Shown piece by piece: positions 1,608 to 21,879 of a stretch of DNA of 24,362 nucleotides. The translations under genes were made by a program, and so were the position numbers. Positions within the stretch are counted from its first letter, which is position 1; each line of letters starts with the position of its first letter. The DNA is taken from assembly GCA_048941265.1 (NCBI GenBank), contig JBHLNT010000056.1, positions 1 to 24,362 on the forward strand, written 5' to 3'. The notes beneath the pieces are model-generated. The model did no database searches and had not been told where the DNA came from. It worked only from the letters and a program-made list of their open reading frames with translations. Origin of the DNA: Promethearchaeota archaeon (GTDB lineage: Archaea; Asgardarchaeota; Lokiarchaeia; Sigyniarchaeales; SOKP01).

Positions 1608-1610
1608 TAA

Positions 1611-3767: not shown

Positions 3768-3940
3768 TATTTTTCCCTTTATTTTGTAATTTTAGATAAA
3801 ATTTAGTGCGATTTTAAAACAAATTATATAATTATTCTATTTTTTTTCCATTCTATTAAATCTTTATATCTACAAAATTTTGATTTGTTAATTGATTTTT
3901 CTTTAAAATCACAAAACTTCAATATAAATAGAATAGTCAA

Positions 3941-4230
3941 CTGTCGAAGAATCAGATCTTTGATATTAAAGGTCTTGATAGCTTTAAAATCCCTAAAATA
4001 AGCGGTCCGAAAAATTTGAATCTATATCCTAATTTTTATTTCAAATTTAAAGAATAGATTATTTTAAAAATTTAAAGTATTTAGATCAGCATCCTCATAA
4101 AAAAATTGTGAGACTTAAGGTCTTAAAAATCTTAATAATTTAAAGACTTTAAATATATCTTACAACAAGATAATTGTAATAAAATGTCTTGAAAATCTTT
4201 CCAACTAAAAAACTTACAAGAATTAGTATT
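3941..4230 (+). pseudogene. Decayed leucine-rich-repeat gene fragment, paralog of 5942..6661
   Basis: 3941-3979 matches 6092-6130 at 36/39 nt (LSKNQIFDIKGLD vs LSQNEIFDIKGLD). It is joined in frame to 3983-4015, which matches 6440-6472 at 29/33 nt (FKIPKISGPKN vs FKVPKIKGPKN). Further frameshifted LRR remnants follow: ISNLK (~4038), FKNLKYLD, GLKNLNNLKTLNISYNKIIVIKCLENLSN*. Has stops and frameshifts and no start. Confidence 0.8.
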
Positions 4231-4234
4231 TATA

Positions 4235-5941: not shown

Positions 5942-6661
5942 ATGGAATTGAAAGATATAAAAGACTATGTGGTATATGGAGGAAGAAAGTTCCCTGTCGT
6001 AAACGGTGTTTTAGATCTATGGTTAAAATCTATTGAAGAAATTACAGAAATAAAAGGGCTTGATAAAATTTTGGGTTTAAAAAGCTTAGAGCTGTCGCAG
6101 AATGAGATTTTTGATATTAAAGGTCTTGATAACCTTATTAATCTTGAGAACTTAGATCTTTCTCATAATTATATAGTAAAAATAGAGGGGCTTGATAAGC
6201 TTCAAAATCTTAGAACTATTGACTTGCATTCTAATAAAATCCTTACTATCGAGGGATTAGAAAATCTTACCAATTTAGAATATTTGAATTTGTGTTATAA
6301 TGAAATTATTGAAATTAAAGGGCTTGAAAATCTTGTTAATTTAAAAATATTAATCCTTTCAGGTAATCACCTCACAGAAATTACTGGATTGGAAACATTA
6401 AAAAATTTATCAGAGCTCCACCTTCACGATTGCCCCCTTTTTAAAGTACCTAAAATAAAAGGTCCGAAAAATCTAAAAGTGCTTGGACTTAATAGGACAA
6501 GAATTTCGAATTTAAAATCTCTTACAAATGCAAGGAACTATACAATAAAGATAAAAGATACCCCAATTGCAAAAGAAATTATTAAAAATTTTGGAGGAAT
6601 TATTGGCGATGATGGAACACTTCATAATTTATCTGATGTTTTGAAAAAATGCAATATTTGA
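5942..6661 (+). CDS. Leucine-rich repeat protein (SDS22-like 22-aa repeats)
   Basis: About 6-7 tandem LxxLxLxxNxIxxIxGLxxLxN repeats, e.g. LENLDLSHNYIVKIEGLDKLQN and LEYLNLCYNEIIEIKGLENLVN. Confidence 0.93.
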   Translation: MELKDIKDYVVYGGRKFPVVNGVLDLWLKSIEEITEIKGLDKILGLKSLELSQNEIFDIKGLDNLINLENLDLSHNYIVKIEGLDKLQNLRTIDLHSNKILTIEGLENLTNLEYLNLCYNEIIEIKGLENLVNLKILILSGNHLTEITGLETLKNLSELHLHDCPLFKVPKIKGPKNLKVLGLNRTRISNLKSLTNARNYTIKIKDTPIAKEIIKNFGGIIGDDGTLHNLSDVLKKCNI

Positions 6662-6851
6662 CTGAAAAAATCTTTTGAAATCAAAAAGAGGCTTGCCTTT
6701 TTATGTTACATTTCTTCAGATCATTTTAATATCTTTTTCCTTAAACTTATTAATAATTTGTTTTATTAGATGATTAGTAAAAATTTTCATCAAAAATATT
6801 CGAGAAGATAAAAAAATTCTAAAATAAAGGGTTAAGATATATCGTTCGTTT

Positions 6852-7445
6852 ATGAAGAACAATAATAGTACAAATGAGATAAAACCGCAGTACATTATTA
6901 AGCTGTGCGTATTAGGTCAAGGTGGGGTGGGCAAAACTTGTATATGTAGAAGGCTTTGCTACAATACTTTTGATGCAAATACCCAATTGACTATTGGTGT
7001 TGATTTTTATACTTATGATCTACCGATTTTAGTTGGCGGGCAGGAAAAATTCATTAGGCTCTCTTTATGGGATTTTGGAGGACAAGAACAATTCAGAAAA
7101 TTCTTTCTTTATTACCTTAGTGGTGCAAACGGTATTATGTTGGTTTTTAGTTTAGTAAATATTCAAACTTTACTTATGCTGGATTGGTGGTACGATAAGC
7201 TTGTTCAACATAATCACCAAAACACACCGAGATTTATAATTGGCACTAAGAGTGATTTAATAAATACTCCAGATGCAAGCACTCTTATAGATGATTTAGT
7301 CATTGATCGTTTTCTTAAAAGACATGATGAAAAAAGCTTTATTAAGACATCTTCAAAAGCTAATCATAACATTGAGTATAGTTTTAAAGAATTGGTAAGA
7401 AAAGTACTAGATTATTATCATTTTCAATATGATAAGATTATATAG
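6852..7445 (+). CDS. Small GTPase, Rab/Roc-like (Ras superfamily)
   Basis: G1 GQGGVGKT, G2/RabF1 TIGVDF, G3 LWDFGGQEQF, G4 TKSD, G5 TSSK; 197 aa; no C-terminal Cys prenylation motif. Confidence 0.93.
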   Translation: MKNNNSTNEIKPQYIIKLCVLGQGGVGKTCICRRLCYNTFDANTQLTIGVDFYTYDLPILVGGQEKFIRLSLWDFGGQEQFRKFFLYYLSGANGIMLVFSLVNIQTLLMLDWWYDKLVQHNHQNTPRFIIGTKSDLINTPDASTLIDDLVIDRFLKRHDEKSFIKTSSKANHNIEYSFKELVRKVLDYYHFQYDKII

Positions 7446-7672
7446 TTAAATAAATTTCCCTGTTTATTTAATGGGAAAACTTTATAGGAGTAAACTTAAA
7501 TCCAACAAATAATCATTTTTAATCCTTTATATGGGAGTTCTTTTAGAATGATTTATATCATTTTTTAAATTTCATAATATTGATAAACCATTATAAAGAT
7601 TATTTAAAATAAATAAAATATATTAATTGTTATAAAAAAATCTCAATTAAAGCCGTTAATGGTCTTTAGGAT

Positions 7673-8608
7673 TTGGAAGAAAATTATTGTATTTTCACTT
7701 TAAAAGGATTTGATGCTCGCATAAATTCAATGGCAATATCTCCTGATGGTATTTATATTGTCATTGGTCTATCTGACAGTACAATAAGAATATGGCAATT
7801 TGGTACAGGAAAAACAATCCGTAAGCTTGAAGAGCATAGGGATGAAATCACATCTGTGGTTATTACTCCCCAAGGTAAGTATATAGCAAGTGGTTCAAAA
7901 GACCGTATCATATGGATCTGGGATTTATTAACAGCCTTACCATTAAGACAAATAGAAGCTCATAGTAAAAAGATTGTTTCTTTAGCAATATCTCCAGATG
8001 GAAAATATCTCGCAAGTGCTGCAAGCGATCAAACTGTGAAGCTTTGGGAGTTAAAAACAGGTGATCTTATCACTACATTTGAAGGATATGAGGAAAAGGT
8101 TCGAGTAATTACTTTCTCTCCCGATGGACAATATATCTTGACGGGATCAGGTAAAATGCTTGGTGCCGATTGTAGCGTTAGAATTTATTCTCTTGATGGT
8201 AGTGCTACCCTTATAAAAAAAATAACATGGCAAGAAGAGCCAATCTATTCAATGTCAATGTCTCCTGATGGAAAATTAATTATTTGTGGTTTAGCATATT
8301 TTCTACCTAAAGAAAATTGTAAAATAAACATTATAGATTTCGAAACTGAGATAATCATTGGAATACTTGAGGGCCATAAAGGTTCAGTAGATTCAATTGC
8401 TTTCTCTCCCGATGGCAAATATATGATTAGTGCTTCTCTTGATAAAACTTTAAAAGTGTGGGAGGTAAATACATGGAATCTTATTGAAACACTTCAAGGT
8501 CATGAAGATGCCATAAGATCGGTTTTATTCTCTCCTGATGGTAAATATATATTCAGTGGATCATGGGATAAAACTTTAAAAATTTGGAATTTTCATGATA
8601 TAATTTAA
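7673..8608 (+). CDS. WD40 repeat protein, single 7-bladed beta-propeller (TTG start)
   Basis: Seven repeats of the type GHxxxVxSVAFSPDGKYxxSGSxDKTLKIW cover the whole 311 aa. Confidence 0.93.
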   Translation: MEENYCIFTLKGFDARINSMAISPDGIYIVIGLSDSTIRIWQFGTGKTIRKLEEHRDEITSVVITPQGKYIASGSKDRIIWIWDLLTALPLRQIEAHSKKIVSLAISPDGKYLASAASDQTVKLWELKTGDLITTFEGYEEKVRVITFSPDGQYILTGSGKMLGADCSVRIYSLDGSATLIKKITWQEEPIYSMSMSPDGKLIICGLAYFLPKENCKINIIDFETEIIIGILEGHKGSVDSIAFSPDGKYMISASLDKTLKVWEVNTWNLIETLQGHEDAIRSVLFSPDGKYIFSGSWDKTLKIWNFHDII

Positions 8609-8646: not shown

Positions 8647-9333
8647 TTATTTTATTAAATCCTCAAATTCACGATCAGATAGGAATCCTTTTTGTTGCAT
8701 TATACTTTTAATTTCATCAACAAGGTATCGAGTCGATTGTTGTTCTGAAATAGCAGCCTCCAATATCTTTATTTTATTTTTGAAATCATTATTTAGCTCT
8801 AATTTTGCTTCTAAATCACTGTTAATTTTTGTAATTTCTTGTTCTTTTTGTTCAATAATTTCTCTTAAATTTTCAATCTCTTTGTTTTTTTGCTCTATAT
8901 TAATTTTGAACCTTTCAATTTCTCTATTTTTTTGATTATTAATATTTTTTAGATTTTCTATCTGATTCTTCTTTTCGGTAAGATCTTTTACAGGTCCCTC
9001 CTTTAAAACTTCTATTTCATTGCTTTTTTCAGATAAATTTTGCTCAAATTTAGCTATATTATTTTTTAATAAGCTTATTTCCTTCTCTGCCCTTCTAAGT
9101 TGCTCTTTAGATTCCTTTAAATCTTTATCATTAAATGATAACTTATCAGTTAAATCTCGTAATGTATCCTCTTTTTTACTTAAATTTTCTCTCGTTTTTT
9201 CTAAATTTTTTTTATTTTGAGCTAATTCCAATTCTAAATCGTGAATTTTAGCTCTAAAATCTAACAAAATCTGCCCGTCTACCTTTATTTTCGTTTCAGG
9301 TTTAGATTCTATTTTAGACCAATCAATACTCAA
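8647..9333 (-). CDS. Coiled-coil protein, paralog 1 of a head-rod-tail family (TTG start)
   Basis: Head MSIDWSKIESKPETKIKVDGQILLDFRAKIHDLE; K/E/N/I/L heptad rod; tail IKSIMQQKGFLSDREFEDLIK. Homologous to three other genes in the window. Confidence 0.88.
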   Translation of the reverse strand: MSIDWSKIESKPETKIKVDGQILLDFRAKIHDLELELAQNKKNLEKTRENLSKKEDTLRDLTDKLSFNDKDLKESKEQLRRAEKEISLLKNNIAKFEQNLSEKSNEIEVLKEGPVKDLTEKKNQIENLKNINNQKNREIERFKINIEQKNKEIENLREIIEQKEQEITKINSDLEAKLELNNDFKNKIKILEAAISEQQSTRYLVDEIKSIMQQKGFLSDREFEDLIK

Positions 9334-9432
9334 ATTTTTTCCACTTTTTTAATCTCGGACTTTTTAAAAAGCCATAATTATTGATAATGAGTATATCTAT
9401 TCCTAATTTTATAAATATTTCTTTAAATTTCT

Positions 9433-9452
9433 TAAAATTTCATGAAATTTTA
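9433..9452. repeat. Perfect 20-bp palindrome TAAAATTTCATGAAATTTTA
   Basis: Arms 9433-9442 and 9443-9452 are exact reverse complements; lies just upstream of the putative TATA box of paralog 1. Confidence 0.6.
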
Positions 9453-9531
9453 TAGTTCTTTAAAATTAGTGCCCAATTTAAATAGAAATATCTATGATTA
9501 ATAGAAAGGTTAAATTTAGAAAGCAAATTCA

Positions 9532-10398
9532 TTATAAAATTTGCTCTAATTCTTTATCAGTTACAAATCCTTTTAAATCCATTAATTCTTTAATTCTTCT
9601 AAAAACCTCACTTTCATTTTCGCGTGGTATTGGAAAATCTTTGACATTAGACATTTGACCATATAATTCATTAATGTTATTATTTAATTCTTCTATTTGA
9701 TCAATCTTTTTTTCGAGATCTTTCTCAAGTTTAGCAATTATGCTGTCCTTAGTTAAAATGGTGTGATCTAAATCCTTTTTATTAATTTCAATTTGTTTAT
9801 TCTTTAGTTCTAGCTCCTCTTTTTGTTTATCTAGGTCATTTTTAAAACGATTAACGTCTAAATTTCTTGTCTCTACAGCTTGTTCCAGCTCTTTCTTTAA
9901 TATTCCAATTTCTCTTTTGGTACTTTCTAAATCAGACCTAAGATATTCGATTTGGTTCTCTTTCCCTGAAGAGTTCTGATTGAATTGACTTTTGATTTTT
10001 TCAATTTCTTTAATAGCTTTTTCTAAATTAAATTTAACTCTCATTAATTCATTATCCTTGTTTACGATTTTTTGTTCCAGTTCTGAAATTCTGTCTAAAG
10101 ATATATCAGTTCTCTCTTTTTTTTCTGTAACTTTTGTCTCAGCCATACGTAATTTCTTTTTCAAATCTGAAATAATCTCATTCATATTTTTTTCAGAAGC
10201 TATGAACTTTCCGGTAAGTTGGTTAAAACTTTGCTCGGTGATTGTTAATTTTTCTTTTGCTTGTTCTATTTCTTTAGTTCTTTGAGATAAATCATGTTCT
10301 AAATCATAAATTTTAGTTCTTAAATCTAAAAGAAATTTTCCCTCCACTTTTTGCCTTCTATTAGGTTTTATAGTTGCTAATTCCCAATCTATTCTCAT
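9532..10398 (-). CDS. Coiled-coil protein, paralog 2 (ATG start)
   Basis: Head MRIDWELATIKPNRRQKVEGKFLLDLRTKIYDLE; tail IKELMDLKGFVTDKELEQIL; AGGAGA SD-like site upstream. Confidence 0.88.
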   Translation of the reverse strand: MRIDWELATIKPNRRQKVEGKFLLDLRTKIYDLEHDLSQRTKEIEQAKEKLTITEQSFNQLTGKFIASEKNMNEIISDLKKKLRMAETKVTEKKERTDISLDRISELEQKIVNKDNELMRVKFNLEKAIKEIEKIKSQFNQNSSGKENQIEYLRSDLESTKREIGILKKELEQAVETRNLDVNRFKNDLDKQKEELELKNKQIEINKKDLDHTILTKDSIIAKLEKDLEKKIDQIEELNNNINELYGQMSNVKDFPIPRENESEVFRRIKELMDLKGFVTDKELEQIL

Positions 10399-10606
10399 AC
10401 TTTTTTTATCTCCTTTAGGTATTCTCGATAAATTATTATTAATATGAACCCTTGTTATTAGGTTATCACATTAGTTTAATAAATATATCTGTTCTAATAT
10501 AATAGAAATTCTTACTTTCGTATAAAAATTTTACTTATAAATATCGTGTCTTAATATTTTTACACACAAAAAAGAAGTCTTACTCGATAAGTATAAAATA
10601 GTTTTT

Positions 10607-11389
10607 TTAGTAATTCAATTGTAATTGGTCTTTTTCTATTTTCTCTTTTAAATGTTCGAACTCTTTATCAGATATAAATCCTTTAAGATGCATCAGCTTA
10701 TCAATCTTTTTAATGAGTTTTGAAGATAATTGAATTTCATCAGAAATTTTTAACTCAAGCACTTTAAAATTATTAGTTATCTCATTTATTTGCTTTGTTT
10801 TAGCCTCAAATTCATTTTCAAGCTTTTGAATTTCTAAATCCTTTTTATGGATTAGATTTTCGTTAGTTTCAAGTTGCCTTTTGATTTTTTTTAAGATTTC
10901 ATTTGTTTTTTCTATTTCTAAATCTTTATTTAAAAGTTGTTGCAAAAAATCTTTCTTATCAATTTCCTTTTGTTTATTCATTTGTTCAATTATTTTTTTT
11001 AAATGAGCAATATCCTTATCCTTTTCTAAGAATTGAATTTCAAGCTTTTTAAGATTATTAATTTGTTTATTTCTCTGCTCTATATCTATTTTTAGAATTC
11101 CAATTTCTTTATCTCTGTTTAAAATCGTCTTTTCTAAAAACTTTATTTTATCATTTAATGCTTTATCTCGAATTTCAAACTCTTTATTTCTTTTTTCGAC
11201 CTTATTTAACCCGAATTCTACGTCTGTTGTAGCAGATATTATTCGATCATTCAAATCCTTGATCTCTTTTCTTTTTTGAGCAAGATTTTTCTCCAAATCA
11301 TTTATTTTAGCCCTTAAATCCAAAAGATCACTTCCTAATACTTTATGTTTTGATTTTGGGTTTGACTGGGCTTTAGACCAATCGATTAT
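10607..11389 (-). CDS. Coiled-coil protein, paralog 3; true start probably a non-canonical ATA (11389) or GTA (11392), ~260 aa
   Basis: The frame stays open upstream of the track's TTG (11323) and encodes the family head (V)IIDWSKAQSNPKSKHKVLGSDLLDLRAKINDLE, bounded by an in-frame TAA at 11393-11395. SD-like AGGTGG at 11396-11401. Tail IDKLMHLKGFISDKEFEHL. Confidence 0.8.
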   Translation of the reverse strand: MIDWSKAQSNPKSKHKVLGSDLLDLRAKINDLEKNLAQKRKEIKDLNDRIISATTDVEFGLNKVEKRNKEFEIRDKALNDKIKFLEKTILNRDKEIGILKIDIEQRNKQINNLKKLEIQFLEKDKDIAHLKKIIEQMNKQKEIDKKDFLQQLLNKDLEIEKTNEILKKIKRQLETNENLIHKKDLEIQKLENEFEAKTKQINEITNNFKVLELKISDEIQLSSKLIKKIDKLMHLKGFISDKEFEHLKEKIEKDQLQLNY

Positions 11390-11765
11390 TACTTACCACC
11401 TATATGACTAATAATTTGTTATTGTCCTTGTAATCTAATAAAGTTTATTCAAAAATTTCAAGTGATTGTTGATCCACAATTTATATTAGATTTTAAGATA
11501 TATATTAGTTTAAATTTTATCTTATATTATGACAACTTTTTCACTTTTTTGAAATATGGCTTTTTATTTTTTTATAAGACGGAGGAGGACCAGTTCTTAT
11601 TTCTTTACTGTCAATAAATGAAGCATCTTTAATTCCCCACTTTAAAAATATAAAAGAAGATATTTCAATAAGATTTTGATTCTTTTATCACTTAAATTTT
11701 AATTAAAAGTTTTTAACAGCCAAAATTTACATTTTATATTGGAGTGAGTTTTAATTAAAACTAAT

Positions 11766-13193
11766 ATGGAAGAAAAAGGACTAATATTTACAATCAGTGG
11801 AATCCGTGGAATTGTAGGAGAGAATTTGAATGCTGAAGTAGTAAGAAGGATTGCTTTAGCATATGGTTTATGGCTCAAAAGTGATGATAAAACAGTTATA
11901 GTTGGAAGAGACACTAGACCAAGCGGTCAAAACCTTAAAGCATCAATATTTGATGGATTGAATCATGCTAATTGTAAAATTATTAATTTGGGAGTTTGTC
12001 CCACGCCTATTATTATATATATGAAAAATAAGCTTCATGCTTCTGGCGGAATTATCATCTCAGGCTCACATAATCCTCCTGAATGGAATGGATTAAAATT
12101 ACTTTCTACAAAAACGTTCTTAAATAAGTTAGAAGTAGAAGAAATTTCCAAAATTCTGTCTAATAACCAATTAGATCATTATTTTAAAAGTGCTTCTTAT
12201 CAGCCAAAAGTGTCTAAAAACTTAACTGCATTTAATGAATATATTCAAGGGCTCAGAAGTATAATTAATTTTGAAAGAATAAGGAGCAATAATAGTTTAA
12301 AAGTTGGTCTTGATACTGGAGCAGGAGCCGGAAAAGTAGTTACTCCTAAAATCTTAGAGGAACTTGGATGTGAAGTTAAATTAATTAACAATAATTTCAG
12401 AAATAATAAGTTTCCCAGGGAAATAGAACCAATCGAAAGTAATTTAAAAGATTTAATCAAAAAAGTTTTAAAAGACGAGCTTGATGTCGGTTTTGCCCAC
12501 GATTGCGATGCTGATCGGATTGCAATTATCGGAGATGATGGAACTTGTTATCCAGAAGATATAGGATTGGCTATTATAGCTGATTATAGTTTTAAACAAT
12601 ATCATAAAGCCGGAAAGAATGCAATATTCGTGACAAATCTAGCTTCCTCCTTAATATTTAATGCTCTCGCAGAAAAATACAATGTGAAGGTTATTCGAAC
12701 TCCCGTGGGTGAAAGGTTTCTTGCTGAAAAAATGGAAAATTTACTTAAGGAAGAAGTTTCTTCAACTATAGTTTTTGGAGGAGAGGGATCTTGCGGAGGA
12801 ATAATGATTCCGCAATTTAATAATACAAGAGATGGGATTTTTGCTGCCGCTAAAATAATAGAGATTTTAGTAGAAAAAAATATAAAAATCTCAAAATTAG
12901 TTGCTAAACTCCCTAAGTTTTATACCTTTAGAGAATATATTAATGCTGAAGGTAAGAATCTGGAACAGTTGATAAATAAATTGAAAATTGATTTAATCTC
13001 AGATGGAGAAAATGTAAATCAGATTGATATGGATTTGAAGTTTGATCATGGAAGGGATTGGTTTGTGTTAATTCATCCTTCGAATACAGAACCAATTATA
13101 CGAGTCATTAGCGAGGCAAATAATGAAAAAAATGCAAAGGACAAATTAGCAATCACATCAGAGCGAGTAAAATCCATTCTGTCAAGAATATAA
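11766..13193 (+). CDS. Alpha-D-phosphohexomutase (phosphoglucosamine mutase / PMM-PGM family)
   Basis: SGIRG, GRDTR, catalytic SGSHNP, metal loop DCDADR, TPVGE, GGEGS, RDG and PSNTEPIIRV motifs. Confidence 0.92.
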   Translation: MEEKGLIFTISGIRGIVGENLNAEVVRRIALAYGLWLKSDDKTVIVGRDTRPSGQNLKASIFDGLNHANCKIINLGVCPTPIIIYMKNKLHASGGIIISGSHNPPEWNGLKLLSTKTFLNKLEVEEISKILSNNQLDHYFKSASYQPKVSKNLTAFNEYIQGLRSIINFERIRSNNSLKVGLDTGAGAGKVVTPKILEELGCEVKLINNNFRNNKFPREIEPIESNLKDLIKKVLKDELDVGFAHDCDADRIAIIGDDGTCYPEDIGLAIIADYSFKQYHKAGKNAIFVTNLASSLIFNALAEKYNVKVIRTPVGERFLAEKMENLLKEEVSSTIVFGGEGSCGGIMIPQFNNTRDGIFAAAKIIEILVEKNIKISKLVAKLPKFYTFREYINAEGKNLEQLINKLKIDLISDGENVNQIDMDLKFDHGRDWFVLIHPSNTEPIIRVISEANNEKNAKDKLAITSERVKSILSRI

Positions 13194-13217
13194 TAAGTAT
13201 ATTTATATAATAAGATT

Positions 13218-14234
13218 TTATAACATATCCAGTATGGGACTATTTTCTATTTTGTATTTAATTAAGGCTAAGGCACCTCTAAGGCCAATATCTTCTCTAT
13301 ATCTTGTTGCTTTCAACTTCGGAGGATGGTTTATAGTAAATATAATCGGATTCTTTTCAAATTGTTCAATTATAGGAGGTAATATTTGGTCTTTATCTTT
13401 CATCATCGCTCCACCAAAATATATTGCAGTGCAATCATAAAAGTTATTTACTAAGCCAATACCTACCTTCATATAAAAAATAAATTGATTAATCATTTTT
13501 TCAGAAAGCTCATCTCCTTCTCTGGCTGCTTGGAATACTTCTTTTGCTGTAATTTTTGAAGTATCATTATCTACTATTTTCATCAAGATATCACAATTTA
13601 AATCGCCTTTTTCAATTTCTTCTAATGTTCTCCTCATTACTCCTGTTCCTGAGCTAAATACCTCCCAACACCCATAGGCTCCGCAATTACACTGAAGGAT
13701 ACTCTTTGGTTCTACCAAGCCATGACCCACTTCAGCTGCATTTCCGTCTTTACCTATTAATAAATGCCCGTTCACTATTGCTCCCCCTCCAATTCCCGTT
13801 GAAACGGTAATATACACTAAATTCTCCTTCTCATCCTCGTTAGCCTCAAAATAATGGACACCTAATACTGCTGCATTACAGTCGTTAATCAAGTAAGTTG
13901 GAATATCTGGGAATTGATCTTGAATAGGTTGTTTTAGAGGTATTTCTCTGAATCCGAGATTGGCATTATTAAATACCTCACCGGTTTCCATATCTATGGG
14001 GCCAGCACAGGCTAATCCTATTCCTATGATTTGATCCTTAGTCAAGTTATTCTCCTTTAAAAATTCAGATATCAGTTTAGAGACTATATTACTAATCGAA
14101 AATTTATTTGCTTTTGGTGTAGTGACAACTTTTGTTTTGATATTTTCTTCTCTTAAATCTTGTTTAGAAATTGCCACGCGAATCCAAGTACCTCCAATAT
14201 CAACTCCAATAATATTTTTTTGATTTTGGTCCAT
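13218..14234 (-). CDS. ROK family sugar kinase (glucokinase/GlcNAc kinase-like)
   Basis: VDIGGT ATP motif, NDCNAA, VSTGIGGG, AEVGH and Zn motif CNCGAYGCWE; no N-terminal HTH, so a kinase rather than a repressor. Confidence 0.92.
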   Translation of the reverse strand: MDQNQKNIIGVDIGGTWIRVAISKQDLREENIKTKVVTTPKANKFSISNIVSKLISEFLKENNLTKDQIIGIGLACAGPIDMETGEVFNNANLGFREIPLKQPIQDQFPDIPTYLINDCNAAVLGVHYFEANEDEKENLVYITVSTGIGGGAIVNGHLLIGKDGNAAEVGHGLVEPKSILQCNCGAYGCWEVFSSGTGVMRRTLEEIEKGDLNCDILMKIVDNDTSKITAKEVFQAAREGDELSEKMINQFIFYMKVGIGLVNNFYDCTAIYFGGAMMKDKDQILPPIIEQFEKNPIIFTINHPPKLKATRYREDIGLRGALALIKYKIENSPILDML

Positions 14235-14283
14235 ATTATCCCCTTCGATTAAATTAACTCAATTTATCATTCAATTAAACTTT

Positions 14284-15030
14284 TTATACTAATAAAATAC
14301 GTAAGGGAGTATAAGTCGTCTCAGGTATATATGCCTCTCCATATTTAGAATTTATCTCATTCCCCCTTAAAGTAGCAGTATCTTCTGCCCAATCCATAAC
14401 ACGTTCTAATACTTCTTTTTGGGATGTGTAGACATGTTCAAATATCTCCTTTTTTGTGACCCAATATTTTTTGATATCCACTACCACAAAAACAGAACCT
14501 TCAATATATTGAAACTTGCATGAGGGTGACTCATAATAATACACTCCTAAAGGCGTCCAGCTCCTCTCATGACCGCCATAGGCTTTTCCAGTAGCACAAT
14601 GATAAATGGCCTCCCGTGTAATTAATGATAAATTTCGGTGAACACGATGAAAATCGGTAAGATGCGGCAATAGAATCACCTGTGGCTTGTGATCACGGAT
14701 TAAATTAGTTATTTTAGATATTTTTTTTCTGGTTATATCGATATCTGAATACCCTAGTTCAATAAATTCACATTCTAATACCTCAGAAACTCGCTTTAAT
14801 TCATTTTCTCTTTGTTCTATTATTGAATCTTTATGTTCCTTTATAGCATAACCCCCAAGACCTGTAGTTGCTACCACCACAATAATTTTACAACCTAATT
14901 TTTGGTACTTGAGAATAGTTCCTCCACATGAAATCAATTCATCATCGGGATGTCCTGCAAAGACCATCATTCTTTTAGGAACAACAATAGGTAGTTCATC
15001 TTCGCATATAAGATAGTGTTTTTCTGTCAT
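14284..15030 (-). CDS. PIG-L/LmbE family de-N-acetylase
   Basis: FAGHPDDELISCGGT, R..E motif (QRENE), HxxH (HRVH), YTSQ and RG..YGEAY; co-oriented 49 nt upstream of the ROK kinase. Confidence 0.88.
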   Translation of the reverse strand: MTEKHYLICEDELPIVVPKRMMVFAGHPDDELISCGGTILKYQKLGCKIIVVVATTGLGGYAIKEHKDSIIEQRENELKRVSEVLECEFIELGYSDIDITRKKISKITNLIRDHKPQVILLPHLTDFHRVHRNLSLITREAIYHCATGKAYGGHERSWTPLGVYYYESPSCKFQYIEGSVFVVVDIKKYWVTKKEIFEHVYTSQKEVLERVMDWAEDTATLRGNEINSKYGEAYIPETTYTPLRILLV

Positions 15031-15120
15031 CTAATATAGCATCCGTATTAAAATATTTAAAATTTTATCGAGTTCTTAAAATTCTTATTTTTTATTAAAT
15101 TTGACGTAAATTAAGAATTA

Positions 15121-15681
15121 TTATTTTCTTTTTATAAAAAGATAGAGATTCTCTTTTTTGTTTGATAATTCAAAAAGCCCTCCCTCTGTGATTTTTGAGA
15201 TAATTTCGTCTTCTTCCATATGATGGTCATCTAAAGCAAGAATTGAATCAGGTTGCAACACTCGGTGAAATTCTTTCAAGAGACTTTCTTTATCATCTAC
15301 ATTGTGAATAGTATCAAAACACAATATTACATCTATACTATTATCTCCTAATCCGGTATTGCAATCTGTCAAAATCGTCTCTATATTGGATAAACCTTTT
15401 TTCAATGTAGCTTTTTTTATTTTTTTAATAGCGAGAGGATTGATATCAGCAGCGTAGACTTTTCCAGAAGAACCCACTACTTCAGCTGCCGCTATTGCAA
15501 AGCTTCCAGGACCACAACCATAATCAAGTACTTTATTACCTTGTTTAATATTAGCTTTTTCAATCTTTATCATTGGCGACTTGAAAATATCGCGAATTTT
15601 AAAGAAAAACGACATGAATCTAAAATCTATATTTGATTGGGTTTTTTTGGGCTTTTTTGTACCCTTCTCTTGCGAATTCAT
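15121..15681 (-). CDS. Class I SAM-dependent methyltransferase
   Basis: VLDYGCGPG motif I, VYAADIN, DNSIDVILCFDTIH, EFHRVLQP. Confidence 0.9.
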   Translation of the reverse strand: MNSQEKGTKKPKKTQSNIDFRFMSFFFKIRDIFKSPMIKIEKANIKQGNKVLDYGCGPGSFAIAAAEVVGSSGKVYAADINPLAIKKIKKATLKKGLSNIETILTDCNTGLGDNSIDVILCFDTIHNVDDKESLLKEFHRVLQPDSILALDDHHMEEDEIISKITEGGLFELSNKKENLYLFIKRK

Positions 15682-16000
15682 ATATCTCTCACCAAAAATA
15701 TATTATAGTTCTCTATAATATGGAATTATTATTAATTTATATTGAAAATATTTTGCCCTACACATATTATTTTTTGATAAAAAACAAACAAGAATAAATT
15801 TAATATATTGCATACGTATAATTATAAAAGTTATTTCTTCAGGTAAAATAAATCCCATATATATAAATTTTTAGGAAATCAATTCAAGTATTTACCTAAT
15901 CAGATAGATCACGCTATTTGATTTTTTGGTCATGTTAATAATTCCATTGTGTTTTTAAACATTAAAATAAGAAAAAGTAAATAAAAGGAAAAAAATTCCC

Positions 16001-17038
16001 TTATTCAATTTCTTTCGGTTCTTCGCGGGGTAATCTTTCTTTCATATTTAAAAGAGGTCTGAATTTTTTATGAGGCTCCGTTTGATACCAGTAAGCTGTT
16101 GTAGACCAATCATCTGAACGCTGGTTGGCATGACCATGTTCAATCTTTACTTTTATATTTTTATGAAAATATATAGGATCTTCTATATGGTATCTGTAAT
16201 AAGTTATTTTTCCACTCCAATTTTTGCCTCCAGGTAAAGGTATTCCGAAATATGGTGAACAATAATACTCAGAAGGACACCAAGATGTGCAAAAATAGTC
16301 TTCGGTCCCAGTTCCATATAAGATGATTTCTCCATCGTCTATCTCAATGTAATCATCACCCTCTCCCGGCCAATTATGTTTAGGCGTCACCTTTAGATTG
16401 TGGATATCTACATGACAACCTACATAATGTCCCTCTCCTTCCGCTTCAAATAATAGATAATCGTTTTCATGTGTTGGATTTTTTCTATAGAATGGTTCTC
16501 GATTGCTACCCTTACAAGGATTTTCTCTATGCCATTTTACATGAAATCTGCCATAATCGTCATCTAACTCTTTATATTCTTCAAAATCAATATAATAATA
16601 CCAGACTATTTCGACTTCAGTTTCATTTTCAACTTCGATTTTCGCTCCTTTCGAAAAAGGCATTGGAAAAAAACAATTAAAACCTTTACCATCTTGGGGA
16701 CCCATTGAAAGTGGCAGACTCCAGTAATTAACTGCCTTTGCATGACCTACTCCAAAAAAATCACCGATCGGACATTCAACAGAAGGTTCTACCTCACCGT
16801 CCCACCACATTCGAATTACTGCTTTCCGCAAATAAAAAGGATCTGAGCATGCCAATGTCATCCAAATATGCCTAATTATACCAGCCTGATTGATATCGAA
16901 AATGACATGCTTTTGTTTGGATCTTATCAAATTAAAGTCTGCATTTGCTCCTGTTGGGTCATAGCTTGAAATTCTTTTCCTTTTTACATCTTTTCTAATT
17001 TTAGCAAGATTATTTAGTAAATTAAAACCTATACTCAT
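16001..17038 (-). CDS. Glycoside hydrolase family 172 (DUF2961) protein
   Basis: SSYDPTGANAD, IRHIWMT, WWDGEVEPSVECPIGDFFG, FPMPF, WPGEGDD, GTGTEDYF, YRYHIEDPIYF, IEHGHAN and AYWYQ motifs; no signal peptide. Confidence 0.88.
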   Translation of the reverse strand: MSIGFNLLNNLAKIRKDVKRKRISSYDPTGANADFNLIRSKQKHVIFDINQAGIIRHIWMTLACSDPFYLRKAVIRMWWDGEVEPSVECPIGDFFGVGHAKAVNYWSLPLSMGPQDGKGFNCFFPMPFSKGAKIEVENETEVEIVWYYYIDFEEYKELDDDYGRFHVKWHRENPCKGSNREPFYRKNPTHENDYLLFEAEGEGHYVGCHVDIHNLKVTPKHNWPGEGDDYIEIDDGEIILYGTGTEDYFCTSWCPSEYYCSPYFGIPLPGGKNWSGKITYYRYHIEDPIYFHKNIKVKIEHGHANQRSDDWSTTAYWYQTEPHKKFRPLLNMKERLPREEPKEIE

Positions 17039-17404
17039 AGTAATATTCCCCTAATTATTTTATTAAGTAAATTTTAGAACTAATTTAATTTTTTCATTGT
17101 AAGGTGATACTTTAAAAAATTAAAATTCTAAAAAAAAAATTTTAATTAAGGAATCTAAACAGCTATAATCTAAGTTCTTTAAGTTTTTGTTTATTAGGAA
17201 TATCCCGTACAAGATTGCTAAGCAATTTTTCTGTCATAGTGGTTAATTATAGATTTACGATATTAATTTTTATTATTTTTGAAAATTTAATAAATTAAGA
17301 GTTTTTGATTATAAGTTTTTAACAAAAACGTTGAAAAGTTGAGATTTAATCTAATATTAAGTTTAATCTGAAAAATAATAGAATAATGAGATTCTCTTTA
17401 ATAT

Positions 17405-17956
17405 TCAGAAGTTCACTTGCCCCAGTTTATTTTCTATTTTTTTCATTAACTGATAAAATTCTTTATCAGAAAGAAAACCCTTATGCAACATAATCTCCTC
17501 AATTCTCTTAATAAGTTTGGGAGCTGTAACAGATTTATTTAACTCATTATTAAGTCTTTCAATTTCATTTTTTAAGCTTTCTATTTCAGAAATTCTTTTT
17601 TCAAAATCATCTTCAAGTTTTTCAATAACCTTATTTCTGTTTAAAATAGTGCTTTCTAATTCAGAATTTTTGTCTTTAACTGCAATCAATTTACCCTCAA
17701 TTTCGGAAACTTGTATATTAGCCTTAGATAATTTAATTGTTAAATCTGATTTAGATAAGCTTAAAGTTCGAAGTGAATCTTCTAATCCTTTATTTGTCAT
17801 AGATGTCTTTTCTCTAACATCTAATATTTCCCTCTTTTTTGCAGCAAATTCCTTTTCTAAATAATTTATTTTTCCACGCAGATCTAACAAAAATCTTCCC
17901 ATAACTTTATATTTTTTATCAGGATTTTTTTCACATTTTGCCCAATTAACACTCAA
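17405..17956 (-). CDS. Coiled-coil protein, paralog 4 (TTG start, shortest rod)
   Basis: Head MSVNWAKCEKNPDKKYKVMGRFLLDLRGKINYLE; tail IEEIMLHKGFLSDKEFYQL; GAGGTGA SD at ~17963-17969. Confidence 0.88.
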   Translation of the reverse strand: MSVNWAKCEKNPDKKYKVMGRFLLDLRGKINYLEKEFAAKKREILDVREKTSMTNKGLEDSLRTLSLSKSDLTIKLSKANIQVSEIEGKLIAVKDKNSELESTILNRNKVIEKLEDDFEKRISEIESLKNEIERLNNELNKSVTAPKLIKRIEEIMLHKGFLSDKEFYQLMKKIENKLGQVNF

Positions 17957-18511
17957 ACCTTTTCACCTCATTAACCTCGAGAAATAAAACCCATTGAATT
18001 ATTAGATATATTGATGTCTTTTTTATAAATGTTTTTCAACTTGATATGGTTTGTTCACAATTTAAATTATTTATATCAATTTAGCTCTTAAAATAATATT
18101 AATAACCTTTTTGTTTAATTATTGTATGTATAAGCCAGGATATAGAGAGGAACATGGAGCAATCTTTATGTTAAAATTAAAGGTTGGATTATACTTTATT
18201 GTCAATATAAAAAAAAGAAAAATTGTCAAAAATTTTACCTATCAATATTAAATACCTGTTTTTTTATATACATCTTAGAAACCCACTTTAATATTAATAC
18301 TATATAGATGAAGAAAGATTTAGAATAAGTTAAAAACCATCTCCCAAATATAAAAATGAAATGTGATCAATTTTATTATGATAAATTGAACACAAATTAT
18401 TTTTTAGAGATTGATAATAAGAACGTGTGAAACACTATTTTATTAAGAATAACATTTTTACGAAGCGATTTCTTATTTATCCTAATCTTATAACTAACAA
18501 GAATAGAACTA

Positions 18512-18531
18512 CGTGAAACTCCACTTTCACG
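18512..18531. promoter_or_regulatory. Candidate transcription-factor operator, inverted repeat CGTGAAA-N6-TTTCACG
   Basis: Perfect 7-bp arms with a 6-bp spacer, ~185 bp upstream of the sugar symporter; a degenerate copy GTGAAA-N6-TTTATT lies at 18427-18444. Confidence 0.45.
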
Positions 18532-18715
18532 ATTATTCATATATATCTGAATATTATCTTAACCATTTCTATATATTATAAATATAAACTTATAACCTAA
18601 ACTTTCTCCATGAAAGAAATAGTCTTTTATACCGAAAGATATCTATAATTTTTTAAATTAACAAACCTAACTCTACTTATTAAAAATTTAAGAGATATAT
18701 AACAGGTAAAAAATT

Positions 18716-20098
18716 ATGAATGAAGAAAAAGGAACTCTTAAAACAAAACTGTTTTTTGCTTTAAACGGGTTTCCAGATCAGATGACATATCAAGTGTTTT
18801 CTTTTTTAGTCTTTACTTACTATTTTGCGGTCGTAGGCATTCCCATCTTTCAAATGTGGATTGTTTTTATCGTATGGGGGCTGTGGAATGCATTTAACGA
18901 TCCTCTGCTTGGAGCATTATCAGATCGTAAAAAATATGGCAAACTTGGAAAAAGAAGGTTCTTCATAACTATTGGACTCGTTCCGTTAGCATTAATGATG
19001 ATATTATTGTTTACAGTACCTTTGGATTTTAAATTATTTTATTTCGTCATCATTATCATGCTATTTGAATTTTTTTATACCCTTGTAGATGTTAACATTA
19101 AAGGTCTTTTTCCTGAACAGTGGCCAAATGAACAAGAAAGAGCGTCAGCAAATCTAATTCTAAGGGGATTAACTGTATTGGCAATATTACTCGCTATGGT
19201 TCTTCCTACCATAATAATCAGTCCCCTGGTTCCCCTGAAGACAAGCTCAGCTGCCGAAATTGCGAGGATTCCTACAATGTACGTAACAGCAGGAATCATT
19301 TTTGCCATAATTACTATAATTACTGGGGCTCTATTTATTATATATGGTATAAAAGAGCCAGAAGAACTCCCTGAAGAATTTGAGAGCCGTCCTTCTTTTT
19401 TTGGTTCCTTAAAATTATCCTTGAAAAATAAAACATTTGTAAAGCTAGTTATGTGTAATACTATGACATGGTATGTATTAAGTATGCTGACGACAATTTT
19501 TCCGCTCTATGCTATTTTCGTATTAGGAGCTGGAAGAGGCTCTCTTTTTATTGGAATATCTCTGATGTTAACGTTCATAGTTGCGGCATTAACCATGCCT
19601 ATTCATAGAAAAATAGGTCAGAAAATAGGGATGAGAAATGCTTTTATCTTATCACTAGTAATATGGATGATTACCTTAATTCCATTTGTTTTATTTGGAG
19701 AAGGTGACCTAATATTTGGTATGATAGCAACTGCTATTGTAGGATTCGGGATGGCAGGGACAATTTATTTTTTTGATATTTTAATGGGCGATATCGTTGA
19801 TGAAGATTATTTGGAACATGGAGTGAAGAGATCTGCTAGTTTTTACGGAACGAACGCCTTTATACATCGATTTTCTATAATTTTAGTTATGTCCACGATT
19901 GCCTTGGTATTTACAGGTACAGGCTGGGCGGGTTATGATCCAAATCCCGGAGTGGATGTTATAATTGGCTTAAAACTCCTATTATTCTTATTTCCATCTA
20001 TAGCACTTGTAATAGCGATTTTATTTCTAAGATCTTATGATTTACATGGAGAAAAATTAGCTAAAATGAGAGATCAATTACAACAAAAAAGAGTCTAA
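18716..20098 (+). CDS. MFS transporter, glycoside-pentoside-hexuronide (GPH/MelB-like) cation symporter
   Basis: WNAFNDPLLGALSDR..GKRR, ERASAN and DIVDED..GVKRSASFYG motifs; ~12 hydrophobic segments. Confidence 0.9.
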   Translation: MNEEKGTLKTKLFFALNGFPDQMTYQVFSFLVFTYYFAVVGIPIFQMWIVFIVWGLWNAFNDPLLGALSDRKKYGKLGKRRFFITIGLVPLALMMILLFTVPLDFKLFYFVIIIMLFEFFYTLVDVNIKGLFPEQWPNEQERASANLILRGLTVLAILLAMVLPTIIISPLVPLKTSSAAEIARIPTMYVTAGIIFAIITIITGALFIIYGIKEPEELPEEFESRPSFFGSLKLSLKNKTFVKLVMCNTMTWYVLSMLTTIFPLYAIFVLGAGRGSLFIGISLMLTFIVAALTMPIHRKIGQKIGMRNAFILSLVIWMITLIPFVLFGEGDLIFGMIATAIVGFGMAGTIYFFDILMGDIVDEDYLEHGVKRSASFYGTNAFIHRFSIILVMSTIALVFTGTGWAGYDPNPGVDVIIGLKLLLFLFPSIALVIAILFLRSYDLHGEKLAKMRDQLQQKRV

Positions 20099-20259
20099 TA
20101 TAATTTTTATTCTCTTTTATTTTATTTTTCTAACAGCCAAGTCAAACCTTAAACAAAATAAAATTTATTTTTTATTCTAAGTTTTTCAATTTAAAGATAA
20201 TCATGATTTTAGACTTAATTTAAATAGAGATTAAAATCTTATAATTTAGATTGATAAAT

Positions 20260-21804
20260 ATGAGTAAGAGAATGAACGTACTATTTATTATTACAGACCA
20301 GTATCGTGCTGATCATCTAGGCTGTTATGGGAATCTTATCGTAAAAACTCCTAACCTTGACAAATTAGCAAGTGAAAGTGTGAGATTTACTAATGCTTTT
20401 TGCACGAATCCTATGTGCATGCCTAATAGAGCTACTCTTCTTACGGGATTATATCCGAATGTTCATGGAGTAAGAAGTAATGGAATCAATTTACCTGCTA
20501 ATGTAGCTACCATTACTGAATCTCTTTCTAAAAGAGGTTATCATACTATATGTTTGGGTAAGCCACATTTCAATTTTTGGACACCCGCTTATAAATTGTT
20601 ACCAAAATCATCAGAATCTTTTGAGGCTTGGCTAGCGGATGAAGCTGGTGATAACCCTGTAAAAGATAAGTTGCCTATACCATATTATGGTTTCCAGGAA
20701 GTTGAATTGATTGCGGGACATGGTAATCTTTGCTTAGGACATTACCTTGATAACTGGTTAGAAGAAAAAGCTCCCGAACTTGCAAAAAGAGTGAAAGATT
20801 ATTTCCACGTAGATAATTTCTTTACATTATTTTGCGATAGTTTTATTCCAGAAGAGCTTTACAATACTAAATATGTTGAAGAACGCACAATTGCATTTTT
20901 AGAACGATATTCAAAGGGAAATTATGGGAAAAAACCATTTTTTTTACACTGCTCATTTCCAGATCCTCATCACCCAGTCTGTCCTCCTGGAAAATATCGT
21001 GATATGTATAATCCAGATGATATAGAACTTCCTAAAAGCTTTGATAATATTAAAAATCTCTATGATCATCCCTTCTTAGGTCCTCATCTAAAACAACCAG
21101 TTTTTAGAGGGGCGTTATTACGCGAATCAACTGAGGAAGAAGTCCGAAAGTTTACCGCCTTAAATTATGGTTCTGAAACTTGTATCGATCATAGTATAGG
21201 TCAAATCTTAGCCTCATTAGAAAAATTAGGATTAGCAGATAATACAATGATTGTTTTCACGAGCGATCATGGGGATTTTATGGGAGATCATGGAATGCTA
21301 TTAAAAGGTCCCGCTCCTTTTAATGGAGTATTACAGGTGCCCCTGATTTGGAAAGTTCCTGGAATCACTAAACCAGGAATATCAGATGCGTTGATAAGCA
21401 CAATTGATTTACCTAAAACAATCCTAAGCCTTTTAAATATTAAAGAAAGACACCAACCCCCCGATATGCAAGGCTATGACATGACTCCCATCCTAAAAGA
21501 ACCGGATAATCCTGCTAAACAAATAAGAGATAGTTGTTTAATAGTTCAAGATGAAGAAGTTGGCCCTAAAGGACCGCTCTATGCAAGACTGTGTCACTAT
21601 ATTACAAAAACTCATAAATTAACTGTTTATGAGGATATCAAGGATTATGGGGATCTTTTTGATCGAAAAAATGATCCTGATGAGTTAAATAACTTATGGT
21701 TTGATAAAAAATTCAAAGATTTAAGATATAAATTGATTGAGAGGCTGCTTCATGAAATTCTTAAAATTCAGAGTCGTTTTCCTATAAGACAGGCTGCTAC
21801 ATAA
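20260..21804 (+). CDS. Formylglycine-dependent (Cys-type) sulfatase family hydrolase, cytoplasmic
   Basis: NVLFIITDQYRAD, TPNLDKLA, CMPNRATLLTG (CxPxR), GKPH, PDPHHP and FTSDHGD..GDHG..LKG. ATG at 20260 is preferred over TTG 20251; no signal peptide. Confidence 0.92.
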   Translation: MSKRMNVLFIITDQYRADHLGCYGNLIVKTPNLDKLASESVRFTNAFCTNPMCMPNRATLLTGLYPNVHGVRSNGINLPANVATITESLSKRGYHTICLGKPHFNFWTPAYKLLPKSSESFEAWLADEAGDNPVKDKLPIPYYGFQEVELIAGHGNLCLGHYLDNWLEEKAPELAKRVKDYFHVDNFFTLFCDSFIPEELYNTKYVEERTIAFLERYSKGNYGKKPFFLHCSFPDPHHPVCPPGKYRDMYNPDDIELPKSFDNIKNLYDHPFLGPHLKQPVFRGALLRESTEEEVRKFTALNYGSETCIDHSIGQILASLEKLGLADNTMIVFTSDHGDFMGDHGMLLKGPAPFNGVLQVPLIWKVPGITKPGISDALISTIDLPKTILSLLNIKERHQPPDMQGYDMTPILKEPDNPAKQIRDSCLIVQDEEVGPKGPLYARLCHYITKTHKLTVYEDIKDYGDLFDRKNDPDELNNLWFDKKFKDLRYKLIERLLHEILKIQSRFPIRQAAT

Positions 21805-21879
21805 ATCTTTTCGGAAACTCTTTTAAACTGACATCATAAAGAAGAAAATAAAAAATAAAAAATTTGATGTTATTATTAA

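Follow-up and report, generated by a model that had tools for sequence, protein, structure and literature searches.

What kind of protein keeps both of its ends nearly constant, varies the length of what lies between them, and is carried in several copies by a single archaeal genome? The question is raised by four minus-strand genes, designated cc1 to cc4, on a 24,362-nucleotide stretch of DNA from a Promethearchaeota archaeon (assembly GCA_048941265.1, contig JBHLNT010000056.1); this whole stretch is referred to as the window. A sequence-only reading had listed four open reading frames (ORFs) of 228, 288, about 260 and 183 codons and had described their products as head-rod-tail coiled-coil proteins, candidates for filaments, tethers or rulers. 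The four frames lie where that reading placed them, and the 260 amino acids (aa) of cc3 require an ATA start. The answer arrived at below, held tentatively and a little short of an even call, is that the members of this family are modular linkers or spacers of fixed length, in which the head would be the register-setting and docking end. The genes and their terminal segments are:

8647..9333, minus: cc1, 228 aa, TTG start; head profile 86.6 bits, tail profile 57.2 bits
9223..9333, minus: cc1 head, residues 1-37
8650..8724, minus: cc1 tail (helix, KGF turn, helix)
9532..10398, minus: cc2, 288 aa, ATG start; orthologs of 279-291 aa with 65-89% identity
10288..10398, minus: cc2 head, residues 1-37
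9535..9606, minus: cc2 tail, from alignment and tail profile
10607..11389, minus: cc3, 260 aa from an inferred ATA start; head profile 86.1 bits
11282..11389, minus: cc3 head, residues 1-36; W at position 4, like 'MIDW' relatives
10610..10717, minus: cc3 tail, the sole one of the four tails that matches Pfam SHOCT
17405..17956, minus: cc4, 183 aa, TTG start, GAGGTGA upstream; orthologs likewise of 183 aa
17846..17956, minus: cc4 head, residues 1-37
17408..17515, minus: cc4 tail (model: turn 160-163, last helix 164-181)

Each protein is laid out as a 34-aa head, a heptad-rich rod and a tail of ~25 aa. The alignment of cc1-cc4 has 29 invariant columns, most of them in the head (W5, P12, K17, V18, G20, L23, L24, D25, R27, K29, I30, L33, E34) and the tail (M212, K215, G216, F217, D220, E222), at an overall identity of 30-40% and with a middle that is only loosely alignable. 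A common head and tail around a poorly conserved rod, as first proposed, is thus what the alignment contains. The absence of transmembrane segments also holds, the maximum 19-residue Kyte-Doolittle mean in cc1-cc4 being 0.40. Pfam and NCBIfam scans of the four proteins yield only sub-threshold generic coiled-coil models (Fez1, HMMR_N, ATG16, Rod_CreS, SMC, Rad50), and relatives in public data are named 'hypothetical protein' or, automatically, 'chromosome segregation ATPase', much as the earlier expectation of 'hypothetical' or SMC-like labels had it. The G+C content at the coiled-coil genes (window 9001-11000 and 17001-18000) is 0.24-0.25, vs 0.30-0.42 for most of the enzyme and transporter genes; this probably reflects rods rich in Lys, Glu, Asn and Ile, not foreign origin. 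A search of sequencing runs for RNA over 8647-11450 gave no entry.

A family of Lokiarchaeia

The family is real, but 'four-member' understates it: the window's genome (a 5.01-Mb assembly of 361 contigs, 91% complete, with 4.8% contamination) holds six head-bearing copies, cc1-cc4 and one on each of two other contigs. The paralog on contig C306 has head, rod and tail in 233 aa counted from an inferred ATT start; no canonical start precedes its head, and its reading frame opens one codon upstream of the ATT. The paralog on contig C50 (281 aa) consists of head and rod and ends in a CPxC...CxxC zinc ribbon, with no tail.

The head profile, 45 positions long and built from the six heads of this genome, scores 86-90 bits on each genomic copy (E 7e-25 to 9e-24 per genome), well above anything that chance would give. 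Distribution and copy number were surveyed with it in 201 genomes of the phylum, that of the window included. Forty-four are positive, with 1-6 matches each that are often tandem pairs or triplets: besides the window's own genome they comprise all 40 others sampled from its family and all 3 from a second family in its order. None of the 157 genomes that represent another 25 families of the phylum has a match. It is also present, at 2-5 matches each, in all five genomes tested from three further families that belong to other orders of the class. Named relatives come from Promethearchaeota or Lokiarchaeota metagenome bins, a few of the bins being labelled Thor-, Odin- or Hermodarchaeota by their submitters. 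Genome survey and named relatives together place the family in the Asgard class Lokiarchaeia; it is specific to that class, and the restriction is new.

The head

Among 1.84 billion representative proteins the head profile has 181 matches at E<=0.001, 60 of them at E<=1e-10. Of the best 150 of the 181, 138 begin within the first 23 residues, mostly at residue 1-6. The other 12 of the best 150 are proteins of 476-2149 aa with repeated matches on the profile's coiled-coil half only, and are read as noise. Of 128 proteins, 86 have the W as residue 5. Across 125 aligned heads the W (5), P (12) and G (20) are invariant, I3, K17, L23, L24 and R27 exceed 85% conservation, and I3, K17, V/I18, L23, L24, R27, K29, L33 and E34 are each conserved in at least 78%; the six paralogs of the window's genome share 12 invariant head columns. 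An AlphaFold2 (AF2) model of cc4 resolves the head into a short helix (residues 5-10) and a loop (11-19), followed by the rod helix from residue 20; the predicted local distance difference test score (pLDDT) of the head is 74-79. Besides core positions, exposed heptad positions of the head are conserved (L24, D25, R27, K29, E34), and K29 (g) with E34 (e', i+5) would make the classic ionic pair of parallel dimers.

Such a distribution of conserved residues might mean that the head is only structural, a coiled-coil trigger site plus N-cap that sets the register of a low-complexity rod and has no partner, and that all specificity resides in the C-terminal module. The best-conserved stretch, L23-L37, is the opening part of the rod helix; K29-E34 and D25-K29 are spaced in a way that would suit the salt bridges, between and within helices, of trigger sequences; and no partner gene co-occurs in the neighbourhood of the family. 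The invariant W5, P12 and K17-V18-x-G20, however, precede the rod helix, where a register-setting element needs none of them, and the W lies at a fixed distance from the N-terminus. A head with nothing but this structural task is considered quite unlikely.

The claim that the head is not a named family stands: the Pfam and NCBIfam copies searched contain no model for it, and the PDB no sequence relative. The PDB search with the head profile returns nine chains only, at E 0.078-7.8; eight match on the coiled-coil part alone, and the ninth is a homeobox protein (E 1.2, over profile positions 4-18). As far as its residues tell, the head appears to be a new N-terminal domain. No paper on the family was found in a literature search whose scope ended short of the supplementary Asgard orthologous-group tables, which might list it. 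Two tail-bearing relatives (P0007, P0026) carry the precomputed Pfam label PF28422.1; it is absent from the Pfam copy searched, and no paper on it was found. A recent Pfam release may already hold a model that touches the family.

Two further forms depart from the standard head. A genome of the same genus encodes a 206-aa paralog (L057:6292-6912, minus) with rod and tail, a different N-terminus and no head; the public proteins P0030, P0032 and P0033 are nearly identical to it, P0032 coming from a bin labelled Thorarchaeota. No headless rod-tail copy was found in the window's genome. A 162-aa variant (L120:1123-1611, plus) keeps M-S-I-D-W and the tail, without the P...KV.G...LLDLR part of the head.

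Start codons

Recognition of the head bears directly on where the genes begin. In cc3 the first in-frame ATG, GTG or TTG is at 11323, and a start there (the 238 aa obtained by ORF calling) would lose the head. The frame reads stop, GTA, ATA, ATC, GAT, TGG, with the stop two codons upstream of ATA and a GGTGG 6 nt before it. Because no ATG, GTG or TTG lies between the upstream stop and the head, the start of cc3 is assigned to the ATA at 11389-11387.

This gene is not exceptional. Across 61 distinct head genes, the position four codons ahead of the Trp holds ATG in 20, ATT in 18, TTG in 12, GTG in 5, ATA in 3 and another codon in 3, so that ATT or ATA occupies the start position in 21 of 61, cc3 being an addition to these (e.g., window 11387-11389; L005:2011-2013). 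GGTG(A) is usually found 5-10 nt upstream of family start codons. On sequence grounds, then, ATT or ATA appears to be the start codon in about a third of the family's genes. Eighteen of the 61 lack any ATG, GTG or TTG from the upstream in-frame stop to the head, and since the head is conserved, these must initiate at ATT or ATA. To see whether such starts are peculiar to the family, non-family ORFs were examined as a control for GGTG followed by an in-frame start-like codon, a site that 361 of 419 lack; where the site is present and no canonical start precedes it, the codon is ATT, ATA or ATC in 18 of 32 family genes vs 7 of 29 non-family ORFs, the control being crude and noisy. Gene callers limited to ATG, GTG and TTG truncate the members that start at ATT or ATA, and the family is consequently under-annotated in public data.

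The rod

A heptad scan of cc1-cc4 detects long unbroken registers that shift 2-4 times in each protein. In the AF2 model of cc4, made with a 32-row family alignment, a single helix runs from 20 to 159 and is followed by a GFLS turn (160-163) and a last helix (164-181), at a mean pLDDT of 85.5. A fold search with this monomer model against the PDB gives no match at E<=10, which is expected for a single long helix. The closest ESM Atlas clusters are unnamed hypothetical proteins, and the closest named ones are crescentin-like at 0.88; these are leads only. The DNA of the rods has no tandem repeats besides low-complexity rows. Rod self-similarity peaks at offsets of 14, 28 and 32, and 39 is strongest in cc2 only (0.16).

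Members of one orthogroup share a fixed rod length, and paralogs differ in it. The orthogroups are taken from a tree that was obtained by a quick search, is supported solely by the Shimodaira-Hasegawa-like approximate likelihood ratio test (SH-aLRT), and leaves 22 of 55 inner branches unresolved. In the cc2 clade the length stays at 281-291 aa across 11 tree rows (SH-aLRT 99). cc4 groups with P0019, both of 183 aa (SH-aLRT 99), and seven further cc4-like clusters are of exactly 183 aa. A tandem triplet in another genus has lengths of 271, 272 and 195 aa across 2-3 genomes and is monophyletic within its genus (SH-aLRT 96), and tandem arrays must therefore have arisen more than once. For cc1 and cc3 there is no close ortholog among the tree rows used. 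The part of the sequence-only reading that saw fixed ends and a variable rod, in the manner of a spacer, ruler or tether, agrees with this constancy of length in each orthogroup.

Exchangeable C-termini

The opposite end of the rod is not constant across the family. In 73 distinct head genes from the loci collected, a biased sample, the C-terminus is the tail in 31, a zinc ribbon in 28, gelsolin-like in 2 and of another kind in 6, and is cut by contig ends in 6. The zinc-ribbon form is usually the top-scoring copy of a genome and occurs in all groups examined.

The tail bears a tentative resemblance to SHOCT and appears to be a helix-turn-helix module of the subfamily's own. Its pLDDT in the cc4 model is 64-70. 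The SHOCT model (PF09851) matches one of the four window tails, that of cc3, at 16.3 bits (E 0.0081), below the gathering score of 27; run over the whole genome, it finds no family tail at E<=0.01. An hhalign comparison of 16 tails with 7 SHOCT sequences from related genomes gives a probability of 29.7% and E 5.6e-4 over 22 columns, with Gly, Ser/Thr, Glu and Phe/Tyr positions in register. Common to tail and SHOCT would be a length of ~25-28 aa, the C-terminal location and a pair of helices on either side of a Gly turn; in register, too, is the pattern L..L...G-[hydrophobic]-[IVL]-[ST]-x-x-E-[FY]. The difference is that no window tail reaches the Pfam cut-off. On the function of SHOCT itself there are hypotheses only, nucleic-acid binding being among those of Eberhardt et al. 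(2013; PMC3581485). The tail profile retrieves only family members in four genomes of the window's family.

Seven database proteins have the head, a rod, a different zinc ribbon, and then a C-terminal domain of ~90 aa. A profile of this domain matches villin (7.2e-16), gelsolin (2.9e-14), Thorarchaeota 2DGel3 (2e-9) and Lokiarchaeota 2DGel (4.4e-9), and Pfam Gelsolin matches all seven, below or near its cut-off (best E 5.5e-4). The AF2 model of a genome-anchored 375-aa example consists of a helix (14-218), then a zinc ribbon of beta structure, then a gelsolin fold; superposition of the last on Thorarchaeota ProGel (7c2f_B) gives E 1.3e-6, a TM-score of 0.74 and a root-mean-square deviation of 2.2 A over 83 columns. 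Domain profile, Pfam match and model identify the ~90-aa domain of these relatives as gelsolin. Full-length matches to the head-rod-zinc ribbon-gelsolin protein are found in two genomes, both of other orders. No Pfam Gelsolin match exists in cc1-cc4, and the fusion was met only in relatives from other orders. An exchangeable C-terminus, gelsolin included, is new for this kind of protein.

Other head proteins end in a TrmB_C-like domain (E 4.5e-4, below cut-off) or in a helical domain of no assigned type. P0036 joins head and short rod to a peptidase-M10-like zinc-binding motif (precomputed PF00413), and P0031 joins them to a solute-binding domain (PF13416); both lie on metagenome contigs of 1.0-1.7 kb and may be assembly chimeras. 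A separate contig of the window's genome, C175, encodes a 396-aa protein (L089:1626-2816, plus) with a weak N-terminal gelsolin match (E 0.0078, below cut-off), then a long, partly low-complexity extension, and no family head; this domain order is that of 1DGelX.

Gene neighbourhood

The surroundings of the window genes raise a different prospect. Directly beside cc1-cc3 on the other strand lie:

5942-6661, plus: leucine-rich repeat (LRR) protein, adjoining the GTPase gene
6852-7445, plus: Ras/Roc small GTPase, between the LRR and WD40 genes
7673-8608, plus: WD40 propeller, 6 repeat matches by Pfam

LRR, Ras/Roc and WD40 are building blocks of ROCO-type signalling proteins, here unfused. cc1-cc3 come after these three genes and before a phosphoglucomutase-family gene; cc4 is surrounded by sugar-related genes. 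The flanking genes of the window (3-5665 and 11766-23205) are metabolic and encode hydantoinase/oxoprolinase A and B, an HpaB-family hydroxylase, the phosphoglucomutase-family protein, a ROK kinase, a PIG-L deacetylase, a methyltransferase, a DUF2961 protein, two MFS transporters and a sulfatase. A 308-aa ORF (23439-24362), open at the window's end, has no Pfam match.

Coiled coils that bind GTPases typically have conserved, exposed residues in their first heptads, and those of this family seem to carry such residues. The family might accordingly consist of golgin-like or Rab-effector-like effectors or tethers of small GTPases, a GTP-loaded Ras/Roc/Arf-like protein recruiting the rod by way of the head or first heptads. 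The LRR, GTPase and WD40 genes (5942-8608) suit this, as does a genome of the same genus in which the flanks of the locus are kept (hydantoinase A on one side, phosphoglucomutase and ROK kinase on the other) around a different middle: a family member, a 681-aa Ras-plus-DUF4268 protein, the headless tail-bearing member and a GNAT gene. That GTPase, between two family members, nevertheless differs in architecture from the one in the window and is not its ortholog, and the other paralog-bearing contigs, C306 and C50, have no Ras match. The 87 Ras-family matches of the genome count on both sides: plentiful GTPases would favour such effectors, but 87 in 5.01 Mb alone put at least one copy in ~29% of 20-kb stretches. 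Comparison was made with ORFs clustered from 20 loci of other genomes, about 5-20 kb each, and a relative of the window's GTPase is found (within ~10 kb) in 4 of the 20. Linkage to the GTPase is not enriched over chance and was rejected; a role as GTPase effectors is regarded as very unlikely.

Elsewhere the neighbours are again different. In two genera a tandem pair stands between an N6/N4 DNA methylase gene and a DUF72 gene; a zinc-ribbon member adjoins two hexapeptide-repeat proteins; and the triplet of another genus is preceded by a gene with an SCP2 domain and by two without an assignment. Gene context as a guide to function was rejected, no neighbour being common to the groups.

The methylase recalls a further proposal, that these are chromosome- or nucleic-acid-associated proteins, adaptors of the SMC kind, whose zinc ribbon or SHOCT-like tail binds DNA or RNA. 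The most widespread member does end in a zinc ribbon, the automatic names do read 'chromosome segregation ATPase', and nucleic-acid binding figures among the ideas about SHOCT in PMC3581485. The proteins, however, lack an ATPase domain and any known DNA-binding one; against cut-offs of 567-1087, the SMC and Rad50 models reach 14-47 bits; the methylase is a neighbour only in genera close to one another, with unrelated housekeeping genes on its flanks; and the gelsolin ends point elsewhere. Association with chromosomes seems highly improbable.

A proposed linker, or a filament

A constant N-terminal head, a rod whose length is fixed by orthogroup and an interchangeable C-terminus are the design of a linker or tether. 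Family members would be modular rods, probably parallel two-stranded coiled coils, in three parts. The first, the 34-aa head, comprises the short helix, the loop (P12...K17-V18-x-G20) and the first, highly conserved rod heptads; it would set the dimer's register and serve as a cap by which every member docks on the same partner or site. The second, the heptad rod, would extend for ~140 to 240 helical residues, about 21-35 nm, its length fixed per orthogroup. The third would be the exchangeable C-terminal binding module: SHOCT-like tail, zinc ribbon, or zinc ribbon plus gelsolin. Such a linker would keep the target of its C-terminal module at a set distance from the point at which the head docks, and paralogs would supply different lengths. 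Since some members carry gelsolin, the likeliest setting would be the actin cytoskeleton.

The competing proposal is a self-assembling cytoskeletal polymer, of the intermediate-filament, crescentin or tropomyosin kind, built by head-tail overlap and with paralogs that co-polymerise. Both ends are conserved and strictly terminal (head starting at residue 1-5, tail at the C-terminus), the rods consist of several heptad segments split by register shifts, tandem paralogs of similar length occur in many genera (open frames of 247/249, 249/250 and 231/240 aa), and there are weak matches to crescentin and filament rods. But the Filament and Rod_CreS models score far below threshold, and dozens of other coiled-coil models match equally well. 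Moreover, the C-terminus is a zinc ribbon in 28 of the 73 head genes and gelsolin in others, all of which lack the tail, and the tail profile has no match in one genome of another order in which the head has five. The head, joined as it is to quite different C-termini, does not need the tail, and head-tail overlap cannot be the family's general principle. The window paralogs also differ by up to 105 residues, which makes them ill-suited to in-register hetero-dimers. The intermediate-filament or crescentin-like head-to-tail polymer that had been envisaged is not supported so far, and we think it unlikely; modular, probably dimeric linkers of fixed length fit better than a dedicated filament.

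Several observations nonetheless weigh against the linker. No neighbour gene is conserved across genera in the 20 loci, and none of the genome's 6 actin or 7 gelsolin matches is on a paralog-bearing contig. With neighbours that differ, a GTPase that is not enriched, and actin and gelsolin on other contigs, gene context provides no partner. In the window's own family the gelsolin-bearing query matched over residues 1-174 only; the gelsolin fusions being confined to other orders, the link to actin would derive from distant relatives in which the domains are fused. That the rods dimerise, and do so in parallel, is predicted from sequence. The head could be a purely structural folding nucleus without a partner, and conserved rod ends are equally expected of a self-assembling polymer.

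A more specific version of the linker, which we regard as doubtful, makes the family a set of actin-cytoskeleton linkers specific to Lokiarchaeia and independent in origin of the eukaryotic tropomyosin, alpha-actinin and spectrin types, with tandem paralogs as graded spacers. The head would dock dimers at one site (the side of an actin filament, the membrane or the cell envelope), the ~21-35 nm rods would set the spacing, and the gelsolin, zinc-ribbon or SHOCT-like end would pick the second target. Actin-filled protrusions are seen in cultured Lokiarchaeia, and if this version were true, the window paralogs would shape them.

Few known archaea are as closely related to eukaryotes as the Lokiarchaeia, whose actin, profilin and gelsolin have been studied; a literature search that covered main texts turned up no account of long coiled-coil proteins that serve them as linkers or scaffolds. 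The family offers a candidate, concrete enough to be tested, for the 'structural wiring' still missing from the Asgard cytoskeleton: it occurs in each of the 43 other genomes sampled from two families and in five of five from other orders, in multiple copies, with a new N-terminal domain, rod lengths fixed by orthogroup and, in some lineages, fused gelsolin.

Relation to known systems

The layout of head, rod and tail, the long heptad rod with register breaks, the lack of an enzymatic domain and the presence of several paralogs are shared with bacterial cytoskeletal proteins rich in coiled coil, crescentin among them, and with intermediate filaments. The differences are that no model match is significant, that the 34-aa head is distinct, that the C-terminus is exchangeable, and that polymerisation of the cc proteins is putative. 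Filament (PF00038) scores 11.4-16.1 bits vs a cut-off of 40, and Rod_CreS (PF19220), with a cut-off of 100, scores 15.7-17.8 bits on window proteins and tail-bearing relatives and up to 38 on a zinc-ribbon relative. The SMC and Rad50 scores given above come from the rod only, and Pfam finds no ATPase domain. Tropomyosin (PF00261) matches only the cc2 ortholog P0007, at 14.8 bits vs a cut-off of 38.6; by the criterion applied, a tropomyosin has an unbroken heptad rod with actin-binding periods of about 39.5 residues, whereas these rods have register breaks.

The N-terminal domain of DivIVA and GpsB has a short N-terminal helix, a conserved loop with basic and hydrophobic residues, and then a parallel coiled coil. 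The head of the present family resembles it in the order helix-loop-coiled coil and in its strictly N-terminal position. The DivIVA model (PF05103) has no match at E<=1 with whole proteins or at E<=10 with isolated heads, and no DivIVA or GpsB chain is among the PDB sequence matches of the head at E<=10.

In architecture alone, a constant short module, a rod as spacer and varied opposite ends are also what golgins, Rab effectors and cross-linkers of the alpha-actinin type have, and, as with golgins and Rab effectors, the lineage is rich in small GTPases. Unlike these, the family has no sequence relation to them, no GRIP, GRAB or calponin-homology domain, and no conserved GTPase linkage.

The nearest Asgard parallel is Thorarchaeota 1DGelX, which, as described by Akil et al. 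(2020; PMC7444086), likewise combines a single gelsolin domain with a predicted coiled coil. There gelsolin comes first and the coiled-coil 'domain X' after it, whereas in the head-bearing relatives gelsolin stands last, behind head, rod and zinc ribbon. Their gelsolin ends have matches to ProGel and 2DGel; cc1-cc4 are without a gelsolin domain. A coiled-coil rod with conserved ends is, then, a familiar kind of protein; what is new in this one is its head, the swapping of its C-terminal modules and its restriction to Lokiarchaeia.

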